The notes under the pieces were generated by a model. It had not been told where the DNA came from, made no database searches, and saw only the letters and a list, made by a program, of their open reading frames with translations. The position numbers and the translations under genes are program-made. Source: Escherichia coli (GTDB lineage Bacteria; Pseudomonadota; Gammaproteobacteria; Enterobacterales; Enterobacteriaceae). From it: a stretch of 64,000 nt of DNA. This document shows, in pieces, positions 37,198 to 62,479 of this stretch; position 1 is the stretch's first letter; each line of letters begins with the position of its first letter. The DNA lies in assembly GCF_041248615.1 (NCBI RefSeq), contig NZ_CP158426.1, one strand, 5' to 3'.

Positions 37198-37273
37198 TCC
37201 TCTGTAGTTCAGTCGGTAGAACGGCGGACTGTTAATCCGTATGTCACTGGTTCGAGTCCAGTCAGAGGAGCCA
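37198..37273 (+). tRNA. asnW: tRNA-Asn (GUU); integration target of downstream island
   Basis: 76-nt sequence identical to asnU/asnV on plus strand. Confidence 0.95.
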
Positions 37274-37434
37274 AATTCAAGTTTTCATGCTTATCTGTAC
37301 GTCTCTATTTGTTTACGATTCAGTAAGTTAGCGTGAAAATCCTTCCCGGTGCGTATCTGGTTTTCTCTCTGTATCGGGATAATTTGGTGGTCAGATCTGG
37401 GGTCAGTTTGGTTCGATTCTGGAGTGACCCCCAA

Positions 37435-38696
37435 ATGTCTTTAAACGATTCTAAAATCCGCAAGTTAAAACCCTCTTCCCGTCTGGTAAAACTCTCCGAC
37501 TCTCACGGTCTGTATCTGCTCGTCAATCCGGGCGGTTCACGCATCTGGTATCTCAAATATCGTTTCAACGGAAAAGAATCCAGAGTCAGTCTTGGCGCAT
37601 ACCCGCTTGTCTCACTGGCAGAAGCCAGGCAACAGCGCGACGGTATCCGTAAGTTACTGGCGCAGAATATCAACCCGGCGCAGCAGCGCATGGCGGAGAA
37701 AGCGGCCTGCTCCCCTGAAAAGTGCTTTAAGGCAGTGGCGCTGGCCTGGCACAAAACCAACAAAAAATGGTCGGCTGATTATGCCGCCCGTATTCTCGCC
37801 AGTATGGAAAACCATATCTTCCCGGCGATTGGTCATCTGCCAGTTGCCACTCTTAAAACGCAGGATTTACTGCTTTGTTGCGGGTTATCGAGGATAAAGG
37901 CTTTCTGGAAGTCGCGTCCCGAACCCGGCAGCAACTCAGCAACATCATGTGCTATGCCGTTCAGCAGGGGCTTACCGAAAGCAATCCGGCGCAGCATCTG
38001 GATGGCGTTGTCGCCTCACCCGTAAAGAATCACTACCCCGCGTTACTGCTGGAGCGGTTGCCCGAACTGCTTGGCCGCATCGGTGACTATCAGCAGGGCC
38101 GGGAGTTAACACGGCTGGCGGTGGTGCTGACGTTGCACCTGTTTATCCGTTCCAGCGAACTGCGTTTCGCCCGCTGGAGCGAGATCGATTTCAGGCACAA
38201 AATCTGGACCATCCCCGCCACCCGCGAGGCAATCGACAAAGTACGGTTTTCGGGGCGTGGCGCAAAAATACGTACCCCGCATATCGTGCCGCTCTCCCGC
38301 CAGGCGATTGCCATTCTGAAACAGATACAGGAGCTTTCCGGCCATCTGGATCTGGTGTTTCCCGGTGATCATAACCCGTACAAGCCAATGAGTGAAAACA
38401 CCACCAACCGGGCGCTACGCCTGATGGGGTATGATACGAAAACTGAAATCTGCGGGCATGGACTCAGGGCGATGGCCTGTAGCGCCCTGGTGGAGTCGGA
38501 GCTGTGGTCACGCGATACGGTGGAGCGGCAAATGAGCCACCAGGAGCGTAACAGCGTGCGGGCAGCCTATGTGCATAAAGCGGAGCATCTGGAGGCCAGA
38601 AAGGCCATGATGCAGTGGTGGTCGGATTATCTGGATGTGTGCCGCGAGGGGTATGTTGCGCCGTACATTTATGCCCGGCAGCATAAGGCAGCCTGA
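37435..38696 (+). pseudogene. P4-type tyrosine integrase, interrupted by a frameshift near 37870
   Basis: N-terminus MSLNDSKIRKLKPSSRLVKLSDSHGLYLLVNPGGSRIWYLKYRFNGKESRVSLGAYP typical of P4-family integrases; reading frame changes between ORF 37333-38025 and ORF 37875-38696. Confidence 0.8.
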
Positions 38697-38849
38697 ATCA
38701 GAAATAACGGAAATCATTAAAAATGTAAAAGCAGATCCTGATTGACCGGGATCTGCTTATTGTATTGAGAAGTATTACCATTTTTCTGTTATTATCAATC
38801 GGAAAGTATCTAAAAATATTTGGCCCCAAATAATTTTGGTGAAAACCAA

Positions 38850-39270
38850 TCAATAAACCATTTATCAATAGGTAAGTACCGGAAATTATTCCAGTAGAAT
38901 ATTTTCAGGCGATTGCCTATTAATAAATACATTATTGATAGATAAGTGCCTTCTGTGATTTGTCCGCAAATCACAGAAGATGAAAACCTATCAATACGGG
39001 ATATTTTCACGGAAATACCAATTAATACTCCAGAATATCTCCTGACCATATACTCTGAAACCTGTAAGAACTGCATCAGATATTGAGAGACCATATAGAT
39101 ATAAGTCTGAAATTATTTTGTTTCCAATGATTTCAGGCGAAAACCTATCAATGCATCTGTTTTCAATAGGCAGCCACCTTCCGTGATTAACATGTTAATC
39201 ACGGAAGGTGAAAAGCTATCAATAATCGATATTTTCACGGAATTACCACTTAATACATCCCAAAAAATGC
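38850..39270. repeat. AT-rich array of ~110-bp imperfect direct repeat units, each containing a GTGATT-type palindrome
   Basis: Palindromes cttctgtgattt-gtccgc-aaatcacagaag (38950-38979) and ccttccgtgattaac-at-gttaatcacggaagg (39177-39208) with compensatory arm changes; flanking tatcaata and gatattttcacgg motifs repeated. Confidence 0.65.
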
Positions 39271-39852
39271 GCCATAAAATACCGGGCAATCTTTCCTGAT
39301 ACACATTATCACTGCACCAGCTATACAGAGACAAAATAATCTGCACCAGCCCCTGTAAATCGGTTATTTGTGCCAGTGTCCCGCCGCTCTACCTGTTCAG
39401 GGTTGTGCCAGTTTCTGGCCCTTTGGTTTTCGGCCCTTTCCGGTCAGGCGCTGTTACCCTTATTGCCCCTTAACCTTTATGACCCTTTCCCTTTCTGACG
39501 CAACCAGTTTATTTTGAAATGCTCCATGACAGTCTGCACCAGACTGTATTTTCACCACAGGATAACGATCACAAAGTGCAAAAAAATAACATGAAGCACC
39601 GAAGATTGTTAATCTATATGTAGCAGGTAATGATGTCAAAAACTGTCGCAGCATTTTTTATAAAATTATGAGACATTCTGTGGGCATATAATATATGTCA
39701 CAAGATGCAGGAAAACAAAGAGAGAGTTTTCAGATATAATCCCGCGTTAGAATTAATGTGATGCCCCGGTGAATTTACATTTTAAAATTTCCCTGTCCCG
39801 TAATATCGGTAAAAACGATTGAAACACCAACTATTAATCGGGAACGTCTCGA

Positions 39853-39871
39853 GTGATTACAGGGTAATCAC
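39853..39871. repeat. third GTGATTA palindrome
   Basis: gtgattac-agg-gtaatcac; same half-site as the two palindromes at 38950 and 39177. Confidence 0.55.
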
Positions 39872-40033
39872 TATAATATCCCGGCAAACTATATTGGTTA
39901 AGCAGGAGAATCTGATCAGTTGATATTTATTCGTCATGCTGTAACGATATTTTCACAATATAAACCCGTTCGCCCCCTGCGCCAGATCCGGTACAGAGGG
40001 TACGATAAATCGCTGTCGTTACGCAGTAACGTA

Positions 40034-40650
40034 CTATTTTGCGACATTCATGAATTCAGTCATTCCTCCCTCCAGCGGTAGCCGTACACCTGTTTCACCC
40101 AGCGACCGCGACCGTCGCCATGACCCAGATCCGTCGCCGTCAGCGCCAGTGACTCCTTTTCGCTGAATCCCTGCGCCAGTATCCAGGACTGTCGTATAAC
40201 GGGGACGCCCGCCTTTGGTGCCAAATACCACTTTTAGCCGGGTTTCACCGCGGGAAATGGCTTTCAGCCACGTTTTCAGCGACTGTGAACTCTGTACCGC
40301 CTCCTGCGAACGCAGCCCCATCAGCCGCGCAATCTCCAGGCTGCTGCCAGCCCTGCGTCCTGAGTACGGGCTTTCTCCATCACCTGCCTGCGTCCAGCCT
40401 GTCTCAGCACGGCCCGCAACGCTGCCATTTCGTTTTGCAACGTTCGTAAACCAATATCCAGCTCCAGCCGTTCCTCAATGTAGCATTCGATATGGCGAAC
40501 CTTGATCTGCTCCACCCGCTGGATCTGGATATTCAGCGCCCGTAAATGTTCACTGAACCGTTTTGTAATATGGATACGGTCATTCACCGTTTTGAAGCTG
40601 CCGCCCGCTTTCTTCGCCAGCGCCTTCATTTCACTGCTTAATTTACTCAT
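40034..40650 (-). pseudogene. tyrosine recombinase-like remnant (frameshifted, truncated)
   Basis: ORF 40321-40650 resembles integrase N-terminal SAM-like core-binding domain; adjacent ORF 40034-40321 in another frame carries a GTKGGRPR segment; total too short for an intact recombinase. Confidence 0.4.
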
Positions 40651-41416
40651 GAATCCCTCTGCAACAAAAACAAACAGTCTCCGGCGTGTGCTTTTTGGCT
40701 GCGCCAGAACGATACCTTTACGCCGGAGTGGTAGTTTGTTGAGGTTTAGGGAGTTTCAGGCTGTACGCAGTACAGACTGCCTGCGAAGCAGGAGTGTCTC
40801 CGGGGCTTCTTGCCCCCCTCGGTATCGATCTTTTTCTCCTTTACTCTTAGCTGACAGCGGCCCCAAAGGGCATGTCAGACGGCGGAAATATGGCGCAGGC
40901 CAGAACTGGCGCGGCTTGTGGCGGTGAGTTGTGCGGCGTCACTTTGCTTTTTCGCTGGCGCGACCAAAGTGACGCCTCGTCTGGTGCAGGGGGTAAACGT
41001 TACGTTTCTGGTGCAGGGTGACGGTCACGCGGCAGCAAAGCCTGACGGCAATGCAGGCCGCAGCCCGTCAATGTAAGGCGCTGGTTGTCAGCAGAAGATA
41101 AAACCCGGCAAAGCCAGAGTGTCAGCCCGTAAAGCCGGGTATCTGGTGCAGTGATGGTGTATATGTACGTCAGTCTCAGATGCAGGTATTTTTGCATCCC
41201 CGGCGTTTTCAGAGATCAACGCCGGTAAAGGATGCCATGCTGGCGAAGCCAGGCGCTTCTTTCAGACGTGAAGCGACAAAGGGACTGCCCGGAGGCAGTT
41301 TGTTGCAGGCGGGAGACTGCGCCATTATTTCTGGTGCAGGAAGGAAAAACTGTTTCCGGGTTTAAAAGATTGTTTGCTTACCTGGTGACGGAAAAACTGC
41401 CGCGCTTCGCTTGTCT

Positions 41417-41460
41417 TCTCCCGGCGCGCTGCCAGCAAAAGCAGGCAGCGCGCCGGGAGA
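41417..41460. repeat. perfect 17-bp inverted repeat with 10-nt spacer
   Basis: tctcccggcgcgctgcc-agcaaaagca-ggcagcgcgccgggaga. Confidence 0.7.
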
Positions 41461-41566
41461 GTCTGGTTTTACTGTAACAATGCGCCTGACGGTTCAGCCA
41501 TCAGGATCGGCGTTTATGCATGAGTCTTCCGGTACGGTTGCCCCGATCATCGATGTATCTGGACGG

Positions 41567-41755
41567 TCAGATAATTTCCGGTGATGTTTCCAGCGCATCC
41601 GCAATCAGTTTTTCGCCGCGCGGCCTGGAGCGGGTCAGCGCATTTGCCAGCGTGGAAGACGCCAGCCCGGCCCTGCGGGAAACCTCAGCCAGCGATGTTC
41701 CCTTTTTTCTCAGGCCCGCGATAATATCGGCGGGGTGCCAGTCGGGTTGCATCAT
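41567..41755 (-). CDS. Ner/Nlp-like HTH DNA-binding protein (short form)
   Basis: 62-aa ORF with DWHPADIIAGLRKKGTSLAEVSRRAGLASSTLANAL, close to the Ner/Nlp (SfsB) signature. Confidence 0.7.
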   Translation of the reverse strand: MMQPDWHPADIIAGLRKKGTSLAEVSRRAGLASSTLANALTRSRPRGEKLIADALETSPEII

Positions 41756-42213
41756 GCTGGCCTCCCGTCGATAACCTGTATGCCGTCAGCAGTACATATC
41801 CAGCGTGGGGCGTTCAGATTGGCGGCAAAATACCAGACCAGTTCGCACAGCAGCCCGGTCAGCGTGGTTTCGGTTTCCGGCAGCAGCACGTGGCCGTTCA
41901 GTATCTGCGTCAGCGCCAGGCAGTAATCGCAGAGTGATCCTGCATCAGGCTCAAAACCGGGTGAAACATCGGGAAGATCATTCGTAATAAACCCGTCAAT
42001 CAGATGTGGTGGGATCGGCTCGTTCAGCGTGGGCCGCAACAGTGCAAGACAGGTATTAAGCCTGCCACAGAGCGCCGTTTTCAGCGCCGGATCGCAGCAC
42101 TCGATGAGCGTTGTGGCAACGCGATCGCAGTACTCCGCCAGATCGGTGAAATCGGTAGCGGCACTAAAGGGAACAGCAAGTAAATTGCATTCAGAGGTGA
42201 GAGTAGTCGCCAT
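41752..42213 (-). CDS. hypothetical Cys-rich protein (153 aa), translationally coupled to Ner-like gene
   Basis: ORF overlaps downstream Ner-like start by 4 nt (ATGA); 9 Cys; no recognisable family. Confidence 0.45.
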   Translation of the reverse strand: MATTLTSECNLLAVPFSAATDFTDLAEYCDRVATTLIECCDPALKTALCGRLNTCLALLRPTLNEPIPPHLIDGFITNDLPDVSPGFEPDAGSLCDYCLALTQILNGHVLLPETETTLTGLLCELVWYFAANLNAPRWICTADGIQVIDGRPA

Positions 42214-42734
42214 AAGGCCGTCTACAGTGAGTGATAAATATTCCAGCCACTGGAGAGGCTAATCTCACGGGTGGTGGAACCGGACGGGGTTAGCCTTACC
42301 AGCCTCACTGACACTGGCGCGTCTTTCGACGCCCCCGCCCGATCCCGCCATTGAGATGAGACCGTGCGCGACACACAAATATTGTATCGTCAGTGAGGAT
42401 CTTCAGGAGGCTAATCCCGACGCCTGATTTTGCAGGCGCGGCGCAACAATACAATGTTCGGTAATTTTCAGCAAGAGGTTTAGCGGAAGCAGACGCACAG
42501 GAAAATACAATCACGCGATAAATATTAAATACAATTATATTTATATAAAATATATATTGAGCAATATGCAGACACTTTCCAGTAAATATCCTGTCAGTTA
42601 ATTCGTCCCGTTGATATCAGTCAAAAAAATAAATGTAAAAAGAGCGTATTTCGTTTCATACAGTAACGTTATTTATCATTTTGTCCGGTGTCGCCAGCAT
42701 CAGGCCAGATGAACCATAAAAAAGGATATCAGCG

Positions 42735-45700
42735 ATGAGCGGAAAACCGGCAGCACGTCAGGGCGATGCCACAATGAAAGGTGGCCCGATAGTCCAGGGG
42801 TCGGCAGGCGTGAGGATTGGCGCGCCAACCGGCGTGGCCTGTTCAGTGTGCCCCGGCGGATTCACTTCCGGTAACCCGGTGAATCCGCTGCTCGGTGCAA
42901 AAGTACAGCCCGGCGAAACCGATTTCGCGCTGCCCGGCCCGTTACCGTTCGTGCTCTCCCGCACCTACAGCAGCTACCGGACGAAAACCCCTGCGCCCGT
43001 CGGTATCTTCGGTCCTGGCTGGAAAGCACCCTTTGATATCCGCTTACAGATACGCGATAACGAACTGATACTCAATGATAACGGTGGCAGAAGCATTCAT
43101 TTTGAGCACCTGTTTCCCGGTGAGGATGGCTTCAGCCGCAGCGAATTATTCTGGCTGGTGCGCGGCGGCGTGGCGAAACTGAATGAAAGTCACCGTCTTG
43201 CCCCACTCTGGCAGGCTCTGCCGGAAGAACTCCGCATGAGTCCGCATATTTATCTGGCGACGAACAGTCCGCAGGGGCCGTGGTGGATACTCGGCTGGAG
43301 TGAGCGGGTACCGGGTGTGGATGAGGTGCTGCCTGCGCCATTGCCGCCGTACCGGGTGCTGACCGGCCTGGTGGACCGCTTCGGGCGTACCCTGACCTTC
43401 CGGCGTGAGGCAGTTGGCGAATTTACCGGGGAAATCACCGGCGTGACCGATGGCGCAGGCCGTCAGTTCCGCCTGGTGCTGACCACGCAGGCGCAGCGGG
43501 CGGAAGAGGCCCAGCAGCAGGCGGTTGCAGCCGGAGCAAAACGACCAGATATCCCGGTTTCATTGCCGGACTATACAGAATATGGCCGGGATAACGGCAT
43601 CCGCCTGTCAGCGGTGTGGCTGACGCATGACCCGGAATACCCGGAGAATTTACCTGCCGCGCCACTGGTGCGCTACGACTGGACGCCACGCGGTGAACTG
43701 GCGGCGGTGTATGACCGCAGCGGTACGCAGATGCGCCACTTTACTTACGATGATAAATACCGGGGCCGGATGGTGGCGCACCGTTACGCAGGCAGGCCGG
43801 AGATGCGTTACCGCTACGACGACATCGGGCGCGTGACGGAACAACGTAATCCGGCGGGTTTAAGCTACACCTATCAGTATGAGAAAAACCGCATCATCAT
43901 CACCGACAGCCTGAACCGGTGCGAGGTGCTGCATACAGAAGGCGAAGCCGGGCTGAAACGGGTGGTGAAAAAAGAGCACGCTGACGACAGCGTCACACAG
44001 AGTCAGTTCGATTCCATTGGCCGCCTTCAGTCACAGACGGATGCGGCAGGCCGGACGACAGAATACAGTCCGAATGTGGTGACGGGTCTCGTCACACGCA
44101 TCACCACGCCGGACGGCAGGAAATCGGAATTTTACTATAACAACCAGAACCAGTTAACCTCAGCATCCGGGCCTGACGGACTGGAAATGCGCAGGAAATA
44201 TGATGAGTACGGGCGTCTGACGCAGGAAACCGCTCGCAACGGCGATATCACCCGCTACAGTTATGATAATCCGCACAGTGAATTACCCTCTGCAACTGAA
44301 GATGCGACGGGTAGCCGCAAGCAGATGACGTGGAGCCGTTACGGGCAGTTACTGACTTTCACCGACTGCTCAGGCTACCAGACCCGTTATGAATACGACC
44401 GCTTTGGTCAGATGACGGCGGTCCACCGTGAGGAAGGTGTCAGTCTTTACCGCAGCTATGACAGCCGTGGTCAGTTAATCTCGGTGAAAGATACGCAGGG
44501 CCGTGAAACGCAGTATGAGTACAACGGTGCAGGCGACCTGACCGCCATTATCACGCCAGACGACAACAGAAGCGAGACACAGTACGATGCGTGGGGAAAG
44601 GCCGTCAGTACCACGCAGGGCGGGCTGACGCGCAGCATGGAATACGACGTTGCCGGACGTGTCATCAGCCTGACCAACGAGAACGGCTGTCACAGCGACT
44701 TCAGTTACGATGTGCTCGACCGCCTGATACAGCAGAGCGGCTTTGACGGGCGGACGCAACGTTACCGTTACGACCTGACCGGGAAACTCACGCAGAACGA
44801 GGATGAGGGGCTTGTCACCCTCTGGCACTACGACGAATCGGACCGTATCACACACCGCACGGTGAACGGCGAACCGGCAGAGCAGTGGCGGTATAACGCC
44901 CACGGCTGGCTGAAAGAAATCAGCCACCTGAGCGAAGGTCACCGGGTGGCGGTGCATTACGGCTATAACCGTAAGGGACGTCTCACCGGCGAGCGCCAGA
45001 CGGTGCATAACCCGGAGACGGGGGAACTGCTCTGGCTGCATGAGACAAAACACGCCTACAACGAACAGGGTCTGGCAAACCGCGTCACGCCGGACTGCCT
45101 GCCTGCTGTGGAGTGGCTGACCTACGGCAGCGGTTACCTGGCGGGGATGAAGCTGGGCGACACGCCGCTGCTGGAGTACGCGCGCGACCGCCTGCACAGA
45201 GAAACGGTGCGCAGCTTTGGCAGCATGGCAGGCAGTAATGCCGCATACGAACTGACCAGCACATACACCCCCGCAGGCCAGTTACAGAGCCAGCACCTGA
45301 ACAGCCTGGTGTATGACCGTGACTATGGGTGGAATGACAACGGCGACCTGGTGCGCATCAGCGGCCCGCGACAGACGCGGGAATACGGCTACAGCGCCAC
45401 GGGCAGGCTGGCGAGTGTGCGCACCCTCGCACCGGACCTGGACATCCGCATCCCGTATGCCACGGACCCGGCGGGCAACCGGCTGCCGGACCCGGAGCTG
45501 CACCCGGACAGTACACTCACAGTGTGGCCGGATAACCGCATCGCGGAGGATGCGCACTATGTCTACCGCCACGATGAATACGGCAGGCTGACGGAGAAGA
45601 CGGACCGCATCCCGGCGGGTGTGATACGGACGGACGACGAGCGGACCCACCACTACCACTACGACAGCCAGCACCGCCTGGTGTTCTACACGCGGATACA

Positions 45701-46916
45701 GCATGGAGAGCCACTGGTCGAGAGCCGCTACCTCTACGACCCGCTGGGACGGCGAATGGCGAAAAGGGTATGGCGGCGGGAGCGTGACCTGACGGGGTGG
45801 ATGTCGCTGTCGCGTAAACCGGAGGAGACATGGTACGGGTGGGACGGCGACAGGCTGACGACGGTGCAGACTGACACCACGCGTATCCAGACGGTGTACC
45901 AGCCGGGAAGCTTCACGCCGCTCATCAGAATCGAAACAGACGTGACCGAACTGGAGAAAGCGCAGCGGCGAAGCCTGGCGGAGAAGTTACAGCAGGAAGG
46001 GAGTAAAGATGGTCACGGCGTGGTGTTCCCGCCTGAACTGGTGCGGCTGCTGGACAGGCTGGAGGGGGAAATCCGGGCAGACCGTGTGAGTGACGAAAGC
46101 CGGGCGTGGCTTGCGCAGTGCGGGCTGACGGTGGAGCGGCTGGCGGCACAGATCGAGCCAGTTTATTTGCCTGAGCGAAAAATACATCTTTATCACTGCG
46201 ACCACCGGGGACTGCCGCTGGCGCTTATCAGTACTGAAGGTGCAACGGAATGGCGTGGGGAGTATGACGAGTGGGGGAATCAGCTTAATGAGGAGAACCC
46301 GCATCATCTGTTCCAGCCATACCGCCTGCCGGGGCAGCAGTACGATGATGAATCGGGGCTGTGCTATAATCGTTATCGTTACTACGAGCCGTTACAAGGG
46401 AGGTATATTACACAGGACCCGATTGGGTTAAATGGGGGGTGGAATTTATATAAATATCCGCTGAATCCAATAAATTATGCAGATCCTCTTGGCTTAGCCG
46501 TAGATATAAACCACTTCCCAGTCAACGAAGACATACGAAATTATGCAGAGAAAGTTTGGAATAATCCTAATATCATTACAATTGGAACACATGGTGATCC
46601 TCAATCAGTATATGATGAAAATTATAATAAGATAGATGTCAAGACATTAGCTAATGAGGTTCGAAATCATCCTAAATTTAAACCTGGAATGTCAGTAAGA
46701 CTGTTATCCTGTAATACAGGAAAAGGAAATAACTCTTTTGCACAGCAATTGGCAGATGAACTAGGTGTGAGAGTCTATGCTCCTGACCAATATGACTGGT
46801 ACTATTCAAATGGTAAGGTAGAGCCTTGGGGAGGATTCTATGATGCAAACAATCAATTGCAAATGGACACGAATCAGCCTGGACATGAGTTTACATTCAA
46901 GCGAAGGAAACCATAG
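42735..46916 (+). CDS. rhs: Rhs-family polymorphic toxin (PAAR-like N-terminus, YD-repeat core, divergent C-terminal domain)
   Basis: 1393-aa ORF; N-terminus [11 protein letters not shown]...[26 protein letters not shown] like E. coli RhsA-C; many YDxxGR repeats; DPIGL...DPLGL core/toxin boundary motif. Confidence 0.9.
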
Positions 46917-46918
46917 GT

Positions 46919-47521
46919 ATGAGGTATTTTCTCTTTATATTTATAACAATCCCCCTTATCTCTGGAGGTCATATGAGTAATGATAGCGAAAAGATAATAT
47001 CAACATATTCGCTCAATTTTTTATCACCAGATGATGTGAGGAAAGAAGAACTTAAGGCATCACAAGGTGATAGTGATGCTGCATTTAAATTGTACAAATA
47101 TTACCTTTTTTGCGAGCCAAAATCATACAGAAAACAGCACGAATGGTTAATAATATCGGCAAATAATGGAAATGCTATAGCTCAATATAACTTATCAAGA
47201 GAACTTGAGTCAGAAGGAAAAGTAGATGAATCAATACAATGGCTGAAAAAATCAGCGGAACATGGTAATAATTATGCACAATATCAGATGTCAAAATATT
47301 TATTAAAAATAGGTGATATTAGAGGATCGGAATATTATCTAAACTTATCTGCGGATAACGGATGTGTATTTGCAATAAAAGATATTATCAAAAATATGAT
47401 GGATAGTGGAAGGTACGATGACGCCCTCATTTGGGTTGAAAAATTGAAAAAATTGTATCCTGACACAAATACCGAACTTTACATACAAAAAATAACGCAG
47501 AAAAAAAAGCAATCCAAATAA
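46919..47521 (+). CDS. putative Rhs immunity protein (Sel1-like repeat protein)
   Basis: ORF starts 3 nt after rhs stop; low GC like the rhs C-terminal region; Sel1-like repeats; stronger SD (ggagg) precedes internal ATG at 46970, so true start may be there. Confidence 0.6.
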   Translation: MRYFLFIFITIPLISGGHMSNDSEKIISTYSLNFLSPDDVRKEELKASQGDSDAAFKLYKYYLFCEPKSYRKQHEWLIISANNGNAIAQYNLSRELESEGKVDESIQWLKKSAEHGNNYAQYQMSKYLLKIGDIRGSEYYLNLSADNGCVFAIKDIIKNMMDSGRYDDALIWVEKLKKLYPDTNTELYIQKITQKKKQSK

Positions 47522-47808
47522 TAATTATATATAATTACTCGCACAGAGTTACAGTATTGCAAGAAATATATCTAGCATATAAAGTCGCCGCCAGTAAAGA
47601 TAAAGTACTGTGTAATCCTTCCTCCCATATAGGGGTAAAAACTTAGCATCCAGTGCCCTCGACTTAATTTTTAGTATTTTCTCTGTGAAGTGACACTTCG
47701 TAGGATTCAGTTCATGTTTACCAGAAAAAAGGTGGTCATTCTGGTGGTCTTGACAATCTCGATTTTTTGTTTTAGCTTTCCAATCAGCCAATTAATGGCT
47801 ACGGCGAT

Positions 47809-47828
47809 CCCAGTCAGAGGAGCCAAAT
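47809..47828 (+). repeat. island-distal direct repeat (attR-type copy of asnW 3' end)
   Basis: ccagtcagaggagccaaatt identical to tRNA 3' end at 37258-37277. Confidence 0.8.
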
Positions 47829-48276
47829 TTTAGTTTTGAGACATCTCTATGAGTCTCAAGACAGTTAAAAAATAAAAATTATTTTTACCCGGTTACCTTG
47901 TAAAAAAGTGACCGGGTTTTTTGATTTCTGTGTTTCGTGCGCTTAATCGAGTCTCACGCTTCAGTGAGCAAATTGCCCCCCAACAGACATCACGATTCGC
48001 AAGGTCAAAAACTTCGTTCCGTGAAGTACCGTACAAAGGTATAGAGAAAAATACCTTATGCTGGATGTCGCTGTCGCGTTTTTATCGGGAAACTATGCGT
48101 AATTGCCACTTTGCCTTCTGTAATCAGAAAAAGAAGAACTGGAATTTTAATAAATATTATTTCTCTGGGAATGGGGATTTTTTATAATCAATATGACGAG
48201 TTGAACATTATATTTTTATAATGATTATATGAGATTAAAGAAATCTGCCATAAAGACAGATTTCTTTAAAATATAA

Positions 48277-53836: not shown

Positions 53837-61802
<7,966 letters not shown>

Positions 61803-62101
61803 GCTTACCTTCCCTGAACGAGCTAACATAAATGCGCCCTTTCTAGCACAGCGAAAAAAAGTAAATCCTGATAGCAATATGATTGAAAATTAATAACTTT
61901 TCGTTAAGCAGTTTTGGGTGTGAGTTGCAAGAGGGGAGACTACTGAATTACTCAAGTTTTATAATCGAGGGGAAAATGGTGATGGCGTCCATAGCAAAAC
62001 GCCCTCAACCATAAAGGTCGAGGGCGCTTAAGATGTCAAAAACCCGCTATCCGTTAAAAAGCAATGCTCAACTAAGGTCAGTGACATTGCGCTAAAAAGC
62101 G

Positions 62102-62121
62102 AATTTTTAGAATTTGGCTCC
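62102..62121 (-). repeat. inverted partial copy of tRNA-Asn 3' end (distal att repeat of a second asn-tRNA island)
   Basis: aatttggctcctctgactgg is the reverse complement of ccagtcagaggagccaaatt; no tRNA body follows. Confidence 0.75.
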
Positions 62122-62479
62122 TCTGACTGGGATCGCCGTAGCCAATAACTGGCTAATAAATAAGCTAAACCTGAATTTCCTTTCTGTCAAGACCACCAAA
62201 CAGACCACCTTAAGTTATACATGTCATTCTGACCTGCTCTCAGTTGATTAGTACACCCTGAAATTAGTAATGTCATTCATATGACCCTGACCCCAAACCC
62301 TGCTCCATTCAGAAACAGAATTCCGGCATGATACATACTCCCCCTGAACCGAGGTGGTACTGATGAAAAAAATCTCGATTCACCGAAGAGCATATTGTGT
62401 TTGCCTTGACGCAGAAGTTACCAGCATGACTCAACTTCAGCCGACTCAACCACTATCCCAAACCTCTAGGATCAGAAAC

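Follow-up and report, generated by a model that had tools for sequence, protein, structure and literature searches.

A degraded asnW island of Escherichia coli, probably integrative, with a conserved RNA-regulated backbone and a predicted Rhs toxin-immunity cargo

What is the 10.55-kb interval (37278-47829) that separates the tRNA-Asn gene asnW from yeeN in Escherichia coli contig NZ_CP158426.1 (assembly GCF_041248615.1), and what does it carry? We examined it within a stretch of 64,000 nucleotides (nt) of that contig, here called the window, which is 100% identical to E. coli NRZ14408 (NZ_LT599825), a genome whose gene order reads cobT-ldtA-asnV-nac-cbl-asnU-yeeO-asnW-island-yeeN-amn-shiA. 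The interval is very probably an integrative island that combines a conserved, RNA-regulated backbone with an Rhs toxin/immunity pair as cargo, and that has since decayed. The features that define its ends are as follows.

37198-37273, plus strand: asnW, an intact tRNA-Asn(GTT) gene and the integration target (ARAGORN; Rfam tRNA, 72.6 bits; Prokaryotic Genome Annotation Pipeline, PGAP, of the identical genome)
37258-37277, plus strand: core of the left attachment site (attL), left copy of an exact 20-nt direct repeat (repeat search)
47810-47829, plus strand: core of the right attachment site (attR), right copy of the repeat, followed by yeeN (repeat search)
47710-47809, plus strand: arm of attR on the island side; GACCACC occurs twice on its minus strand (homologous to an island end at 62131-62210)

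To place these ends, we evaluated the repeat and its distribution. An earlier note on the window had described a 20-bp direct repeat around the interval, and CCAGTCAGAGGAGCCAAATT is indeed exact at 37258-37277 and 47810-47829, a match across 10.5 kb that is far beyond chance, with a right-hand end at 47829 and not at 47828 as the note had placed it. The repeat had been taken for the last 20 nt of the tRNA; it is real, although only 16 nt of it are the asnW 3' end and the last 4 nt, AATT, lie downstream of the tRNA gene. The same AATT is found directly 3' of asnU and asnV, and beyond the 20 nt a weak similarity extends up to 53 nt (77%). ARAGORN finds three tRNA-Asn genes in the window, and the other copies of the repeat lie inside the other asn tRNA genes or in an attachment-site remnant at 62111-62130.

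Alignment to other E. coli genomes, which the earlier note had proposed as a check, revealed a site that is mostly empty. A query of 1,400 nt that joins both flanks across one repeat copy is contiguous, in a single place, in 4,970 of 5,426 complete genomes (the yeeO-asnW/yeeN junction), among them MFDpir, derived from K-12, and a relative with 99.4% identity; the adjacency of asnW and yeeN that the earlier note states for K-12 is borne out. The interval itself is carried (at least 80% coverage) by 205 of the 5,426, roughly 4%, and is absent from about 92%, in keeping with the proposal that its content is foreign to the chromosome. The 10.55-kb interval is a genuine, variable insertion at asnW, and the K-12 site is empty. 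The locus shows the marks of a tRNA island, namely an intact tRNA gene with an adjoining tyrosine integrase, a distal repeat of the tRNA 3' end and an empty site in relatives, and it lacks a further one, a functional integrase, owing to a 1-bp deletion that frameshifts int. A P4-type tyrosine integrase would have recombined an island attP with the asnW 3' end, which would have rebuilt asnW and left the 20-nt duplicate beside yeeN; we infer this event because of established tRNA-island biology, on top of the anatomy and empty sites seen here.

Turning to the enzymes that may have carried out this event, two recombinase genes were found, neither of them intact.

37435-38696, plus strand: P4-type tyrosine integrase (int) pseudogene with its true start ATG at 37435 (NF007246 and PHROG 1 on both halves)
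40060-40650, minus strand: second tyrosine recombinase, a pseudogene of the Phage_int_SAM_2 + Integrase_1 type (tblastn, DNA alignment, PGAP, Pfam)

The integrase gene has 95% DNA identity to an intact copy of 420 amino acids (aa) in an asnT island (L068), relative to which a single 1-bp deletion near 37868 splits it into two open reading frames (ORFs), and PGAP labels it a frameshifted pseudogene in NZ_LT599825. The Integrase_1 gene, whose Pfam type was read from intact relatives, is 97.6% identical to the intact L068 gene outside its gaps, which are deletions of 99 bp, 1 bp and 194 bp; tblastn with an intact Klebsiella protein aligns to it, and PGAP again labels it frameshifted. The claim that an intact tRNA-Asn is followed by a P4-type integrase gene is therefore correct for the tRNA and for the integrase type (NF007246, PHROG 1), though not for the integrity of the integrase. 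The broader proposal of an integrative island at asnW with a P4-type tyrosine integrase agrees with the duplicated tRNA 3' end and the empty sites; that no recognisable excisionase (recombination directionality factor, RDF) occurs in the island counts against it. Both recombinases are dead, a helix-turn-helix (HTH) gene of the regulatory operon carries a premature stop codon, and the ribosome-binding site (RBS) of the 153-aa gene in that operon is altered. On account of this damage to the recombinases and to the operon, the island is probably immobile. Judged from these lesions, it is probably unable to excise, and after recombinase loss it would stay in place as a fixed toxin/immunity locus.

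Which part of the island is chassis and which part is cargo was evaluated by comparing it with its relatives, whose contexts we obtained by exact-protein look-up and by a scan of one genome per species. The earlier note had pointed to the segment between int and rhs as the place for accessory or defence genes, and the comparison contradicts this: it shows that segment (37278-42474, about 5.2 kb) to behave as a conserved backbone and not as the cargo slot. The backbone runs int, a spacer that is itself conserved, Integrase_1 recombinase, EFASI RNA, Ner-like HTH gene, 153-aa protein gene and C4 antisense RNA, and relatives repeat the order a1b1 - C4 - 153-aa - HTH_35 - (EFASI) - Integrase_1 as a unit convergent with a P4-type int that adjoins a tRNA-Asn or tRNA-Phe gene. 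The backbone occurs in Klebsiella, Salmonella (arizonae, diarizonae), Escherichia, Citrobacter, Cedecea, Erwinia, Mixta, Phytobacter, Entomohabitans, Tenebrionibacter and others. Where both ends lay in the fetched DNA, related islands in three other species measured 9.9, 11.0 and 11.1 kb and were bounded by tRNA-end repeats.

The same comparison shows a variable cargo slot of about 5.3 kb distal to the C4 promoter, which here is filled by the rhs pair. Elsewhere the slot holds AbiE, TacAT and DUF4747 genes (Klebsiella), part of a type VI secretion system (T6SS) that includes TssF/G and VgrG (E. coli, at the tRNA cluster beside gltX), DUF2169, a PAAR-like toxin and a Lamassu-like/ABC-3C system (at asnT), DUF6531-Rhs genes with orphan tips (at asnW in relatives), Lamassu (Entomohabitans) or the NACHT protein EruA (S. 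diarizonae). The backbone is 94-98% identical to that of intact asnT islands bearing other cargo, which suggests that cargo modules are exchanged on a chassis that these islands share. Among all island ORFs, PADLOC matched no defence model, the only signal being a marginal mad1 match on the HTH protein. The expectation of defence cargo on such elements is thus right for relatives, which carry Lamassu-like, EruA and AbiE systems, and wrong for the int-rhs segment and for this copy. As a kind of element the island is known, and its family is little described; in the literature searched, we found no account of C4, the 153-aa gene, HTH_35, EFASI, Integrase_1 and the short-site arrays described below as a unit.

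The cargo of this copy comprises three parts.

42735-46493, plus strand: Rhs core (DUF6531, YD/RHS repeats and RHS-associated core), ending at DPLGL (NF041261, Pfam)
46494-46916, plus strand: C-terminal toxin tip of the Rhs protein, 140 aa, with a predicted clan-CD cysteine-protease fold
46919-47521, plus strand: Sel1-repeat immunity candidate, 200 aa (PDB Sel1-repeat matches to E=1.7e-12)

The Rhs protein (1,393 aa) is encoded divergently from the C4 operon, and its residues 1-1254 match the NF041261 RHS_core model at 2592.7 bits against a cutoff of 2000, with Pfam DUF6531, RHS_repeat and RHS domains; the core has a GC content of 55-65% and the tip a low one. In the tip, a His (about residue 1286) and a Cys (about residue 1326) are invariant, corresponding to H33 and C73 of the tip in 74 sequences, and they stand in the His...Cys order of a clan-CD dyad within what the predicted structure presents as a caspase-like alpha/beta fold. 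From this fold and these conserved residues, the tip is predicted to be a clan-CD cysteine protease, like the cysteine protease domains (CPDs) or Tce1, with a His-Cys dyad. Relatives of the tip number 1,271 representatives in an exhaustive search, some of them single C-terminal domains of 1,300-1,700-aa proteins and others repeated in giant proteins; a word-indexed search had given 3 matches, and the idea of a rare family was dropped.

The gene after the tip suggests a dedicated partner. Its ATG lies 2 nt past the rhs stop codon, and its product is homologous (28% identity, E=1e-11) to that of the small Sel1-like gene which follows a 52%-identical tip on a DUF6531-Rhs protein (L078), downstream of VgrG and PAAR. 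The pairing kept in L078 leads us to infer that the tip is followed by its cognate Sel1 immunity gene, an arrangement expected of an Rhs toxin-immunity locus. By eye, both Sel1 proteins begin with a basic residue and then a hydrophobic stretch, and this signal-peptide-like N-terminus hints at a periplasmic site of action. Several observations weigh against this view of the pair. The tip matches no Pfam domain at E<=0.001, hence neither Peptidase_C80 nor DUF4347; its Foldseek TM-scores are only about 0.5; the tip-like domains repeated in giant proteins may be autoprocessing modules rather than toxins; and PGAP places the Sel1 start downstream, at 46973, where the signal-peptide-like N-terminus is lost. 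Sequence searches of the tip against PDB, NCBIfam and PHROG returned nothing informative.

Delivery is most likely by a T6SS, to judge from gene architecture and relatives. As in E. coli Rhs toxins delivered by this system, a DUF6531 + YD shell ends in a DPxGL motif before a low-GC tip and an immunity gene, and homologous tips are encoded within VgrG/PAAR gene clusters in two distant relatives, namely L078 and a 49%-identical tip in a VgrG-Rhs-PAAR cluster of Cupriavidus. In contrast to the known E. coli Rhs toxins, the tip family has no Pfam or NCBIfam annotation, and the gene is carried by a tRNA island and has no vgrG, PAAR or DUF2169 adaptor gene next to it, there being neither vgrG nor PAAR among the annotated island genes. 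RhsF/RhsFI of enterohaemorrhagic E. coli was considered as a match and rejected, as that locus is unrelated. The tip also differs from the CPDs of MARTX, TcdA and TcdB (Peptidase_C80) and from Tce1/Tce2, with 8-18% identity and no Pfam match, and it is only 140 aa long where CPDs span 200-250 aa. It is fused to Rhs, unlike Tce1 and Tce2 of the Pseudomonas aeruginosa H3-T6SS, which are Hcp-loaded cargo proteins (PMC13323088), and it has a dedicated Sel1 immunity gene where Tce1/Tce2 apparently lack nearby ones (PMC13323088); Tce2 is reported to have anti-eukaryotic toxicity (PMC13323088).

Divergent from rhs, the backbone ends in an operon headed by a small RNA.

42377-42474, minus strand: leader with C4 target set 1, b1 at 42414-42408 and a1 at 42397-42391 (covariation; isrK/c4-a1b1-like hairpins)
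42474-42469 and 42451-42446, minus strand: putative sigma-70 promoter, TTGCTG and TATTGT spaced by 17 nt (conserved alignment columns)
42267-42355, minus strand: C4-type antisense RNA, a' CAGUGAG at 42310-42304 and b' AGGCUAA at 42296-42290 (Rfam RF01695)
42225-42262, minus strand: C4 target set 2, b2 UUAGCCU at 42262-42256 and a2 CUCACUG at 42231-42225 (sequence, covariation)
41752-42213, minus strand: 153-aa conserved protein, first gene under putative C4 control (ORF without family match)
41567-41755, minus strand: Ner/SfsB-like HTH_35 protein, truncated to 62 aa by a premature stop, TGA in place of TGG (NF007670, 90.3 bits; PHROG 769)

The C4 covariance model (RF01695) is matched at 62.2 bits against a gathering score of 45. 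The leader scores 45.5 bits for isrK and 43.8 bits for c4-a1b1, just under gathering here and above it in relatives, and a strict promoter scan missed its putative promoter. To evaluate the pairing between C4 and its targets, the 290 nt upstream of the 153-aa gene were aligned from 32 loci and pairings were counted as structure, which revealed 99.1% of cells paired for the downstream set (a2/b2) and 98.7% for the upstream set (a1/b1), with slid controls at 19-46%. In each set, 12 of the 14 pairs are changed on both sides, and the aligned loci comprise at least five b-types and about ten a-types of specificity. RNAduplex runs on the whole C4 with flanks were uninformative, as energies fell within the shuffled range. 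Covariation thus shows, at the level of aligned sequences, that the C4 loops would pair with targets in their own leader and with the RBS-adjacent set of the 153-aa gene, and it indicates a switch that is functional and diversifying in the family. In the window, C4 and both target sets are still complementary, a2 abuts the RBS, and the RBS of the 153-aa gene reads GTAGACGG as against GGAGG in the family.

A mechanism for this switch is offered by the immI region of P1 and P7, where a C4 antisense RNA controls icd-ant. The island resembles immI in its match to the C4 model, in having targets upstream (a1/b1) and downstream (a2/b2) of the RNA with the downstream set at the RBS of the first gene, and in specificity types that differ by compensatory changes. 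By this analogy C4 should block translation of the 153-aa/HTH operon. It departs from immI in its setting, a chromosomal island rather than a plasmid prophage, and in the genes regulated, which encode a helical 153-aa protein and a Ner-like HTH protein instead of Icd and Ant; by annotation, no Icd or antirepressor family was matched by the 153-aa protein (Pfam, NCBIfam, PHROG) or by HTH_35 (NCBIfam, PHROG). The 153-aa protein has 196 relatives across Enterobacterales and no informative match in sequence searches of Pfam, NCBIfam, PHROG, PADLOC and PDB. Its AlphaFold2 model (predicted local distance difference test score, pLDDT, 85) is a four-helix bundle with a beta-hairpin, and since it matches generic helical bundles with hundreds of equally good hits, the fold supports no functional inference. 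Relatives of the HTH_35 protein are 73-84 aa long, and the tblastn alignment reads on through the premature stop codon.

Two further observations concern this operon elsewhere in the family. Overlapping the C4 gene, short ORFs and N-terminal extensions of the 153-aa protein carry the annotation 'ash family protein' or match Pfam Phage_ASH (PF10554), as in L073-L077 (9754/9865-10023) and in proteins P0007, P0021, P0074, P0076, P0089 and P0104, which suggests that at least some Phage_ASH proteins are translated from the C4 RNA region. The C4-controlled protein also has a subfamily of shorter members, 138-141 aa long, with at least six copies in a genome (L008, L009, L013, L014, L020 and L053 in Enterobacteriaceae bacterium 89; L015-L017 and L023 in RIT691), and as it has no HTH_35, Integrase_1 or P4-type int neighbours, its genetic context is a different one.

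Between int and the regulatory operon, the backbone holds an AT-rich, non-coding spacer of 1.37 kb 3' of int, followed by the Integrase_1 gene with its upstream region.

38729-38758, plus strand: terminator-like hairpin with a 12-bp stem, directly after int (hairpin scan)
38898-39028 and 39126-39256, no strand assigned: two AT-rich units of 131 nt (repeats D1 and I1; 73% alike)
39312-39542, plus strand: three CTGCACCAG sites (39312, 39341, 39534), downstream of Integrase_1
39404-39506, minus strand: purine-rich AAGGG-repeat non-coding block (77-82% identical across genera)
40706-40833, minus strand: EFASI RNA motif (Rfam RF02957, 100.8 bits against a gathering score of 51.2)
40981-41339, minus strand: four CTGCACCAG sites (40981, 41008, 41143, 41331), upstream of EFASI and Integrase_1

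Each 131-nt unit, located between two convergent recombinase genes, holds a long imperfect palindrome (for example CCTTCCGTGATTAACATGTTAATCACGGAAGG). The units are confined to the backbone (450 of 5,426 genomes, chromosomes only, median 2 places per genome), an occurrence that led us to discard the idea of a dispersed miniature inverted-repeat transposable element (MITE) or an element like the enterobacterial repetitive intergenic consensus (ERIC). The purine-rich block is bracketed by GCGCCAG/CTGGCGC-like sites, and its identity spans Escherichia to Erwinia and Mixta; it was rejected as a structured RNA for want of any covariation and for its weak fold, which make it more likely a DNA-level site, and it is probably one. 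The 9-mer CTGCACCAG has 7 copies in the window where 0.45 are expected, 7 of 7 inside the island, and the inverted arrays that flank Integrase_1 recur in most related loci. These sites, the 131-nt units and the purine-rich block are candidate protein-binding sites. An invertible switch formed by the Integrase_1 segment between the inverted arrays was also considered and set aside, as no orientation variants were seen among about 25 loci, a weak negative. An ORF of 52 aa called by PGAP (40918-41076) was dismissed as a gene because its protein is not conserved, and is probably a translation of the CTGCACCAG repeats. EFASI lies 56 nt upstream of the Integrase_1 start, matching both the RF02957 model and its place upstream of an integrase, and it was found just upstream of Integrase_1 in 7 of 7 related loci scanned with Rfam. 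STAXI, a frequent neighbour of EFASI, was not detected in the window by the Rfam scan; the sole match among the 7 relatives is in L006 (44.8 bits).

Further members of the family were also seen. In Escherichia whittamii (L006, 7693-20450) and in Affinibrenneria (L033, 12269-20447), a single 20-kb locus close to asn tRNA genes holds two backbones, which have opposite orientations in L006 and stand in tandem, in the same orientation, in L033; each backbone has its own EFASI and Integrase_1. In the window itself, a further copy of the att core without a tRNA gene (62111-62130, minus strand) is followed by about 100 nt like the distal end of the asnW island, including two GACCACC repeats, and 62111-62210 is the far end of a same-family asnT island that runs off the window. 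Beyond it (L080, NZ_LT599825 2080500-2112000), the asnT element carries an IS3 pseudogene and a four-gene ABC-3C/Lamassu-like system, after which come genes of an integrative and conjugative element (VirB/MobC). Outside the islands, a yeeJ-like Ig-domain adhesin gene of about 8 kb (53837-61877, minus strand) is frameshifted in the annotation of the identical genome, its longest intact ORF being 1,702 aa.

With these parts in hand, other explanations can be weighed. The earlier note implies a P4-like phage satellite, whole or as a remnant, with an anti-phage hotspot between int and the distal genes. Its appeal lies in a P4-type integrase beside a tRNA gene and in the defence hotspots known from P4-like satellites (PMC9122126), yet among all island ORFs only int matches a P4-type PHROG, with no primase/helicase, alpha, Sid, Psu, Delta or CII, and PHROG matches are limited to integrase and transcription-regulator families. 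The int-rhs segment, moreover, has no PADLOC match and is conserved rather than variable among relatives, and at the DNA level the backbone module is absent from a collection of 50,697 phage records save for one unannotated 1.5-kb fragment; in the plasmid collection it is nearly absent. We regard a P4 satellite as extremely improbable. Comparison with catalogued asn-tRNA islands leads to the EARL (ROD21-like) family of excisable Asn-tRNA islands, defined by a target at the Asn-tRNA 3' end, a P4-like integrase and direct repeats (PMC6035254), all of which are present here. The definition of EARL islands, however, also pairs the integrase with an RDF close to the opposite att site and, for the most part, adds genes for a type IV pilus, MobA/TraD and H-NS-like proteins (PMC6035254), and by annotation and family scans this island has no RDF, pilus, MobA/TraD or H-NS-like genes; its C4 / 153-aa / HTH_35 / EFASI / Integrase_1 backbone in turn stands outside the EARL description. 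Set apart by description in this way, the island is very unlikely to be a member.

One could also read the interval as ancestral chromosome that most lineages lost via the repeats, with rhs arriving separately by homologous recombination. Nearly every genome holds other rhs loci that are 80-90% identical to the Rhs core (median 9 places per genome), a likeness that makes recombination possible; backbone, Rhs core and tip have sharply different GC contents; and both recombinases are dead. Against such a history stand the empty site as the majority state (4,970 of the 5,426 genomes), the duplication of the tRNA end beside an integrase, which is the signature of site-specific integration, the same backbone with other cargo at asnT, asnW, tRNA-Phe genes and the tRNA cluster beside gltX, and the placement of rhs in the same divergent position in other asnW islands. 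We give this history little chance, and note that cargo replacement through rhs-rhs recombination inside the island is possible.

The integrative island with Rhs cargo also fits a class already described, as a survey of E. coli defence islands reports 'integrase-only' islands of unclear mobility. It shares with them a tyrosine integrase by an intact tRNA gene, a second copy of the tRNA 3' end at the distal boundary, a hotspot whose occupancy varies, single defence systems in relatives and the lack of conjugation and capsid genes, and it differs in carrying a competition toxin in place of a defence system and in being a decayed copy. In this sense nothing is categorically new in its biology: the copy is an ordinary decayed member of its family with an interesting toxin tip. 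A bolder proposal, unlikely on present evidence, is that the backbone constitutes a module for mobility and regulation, so far uncharacterised, in a family of satellite-like islands. If true, 'integrase-only' islands of roughly 10 kb would ferry individual defence or T6SS cargoes to and fro between tRNA-Asn and tRNA-Phe genes, the diversifying C4 switch could be an immunity or helper-sensing device that times excision or mobilisation, and such a device would explain how the islands move without transfer genes of their own.

For this locus, a gene-by-gene account now replaces an island with unassigned ORFs, and what is left in the dead island is one working-looking unit, the Rhs toxin with its predicted protease tip, together with its immunity gene. 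The tip links a widespread, unannotated toxin-domain family to the newly described Tce-type T6SS effectors, here with a dedicated immunity protein, and a genetic setting can now be given for the orphan Rfam motif EFASI and for the C4/isrK-like RNAs found on these islands. Small cargo islands of this family can be recognised by their backbone in many enterobacterial genera, and it could be used to mine them for single-system defence or toxin cargo. In E. coli, the Rhs/Sel1 unit may influence competition between strains in those genomes, roughly 4%, that have the island.

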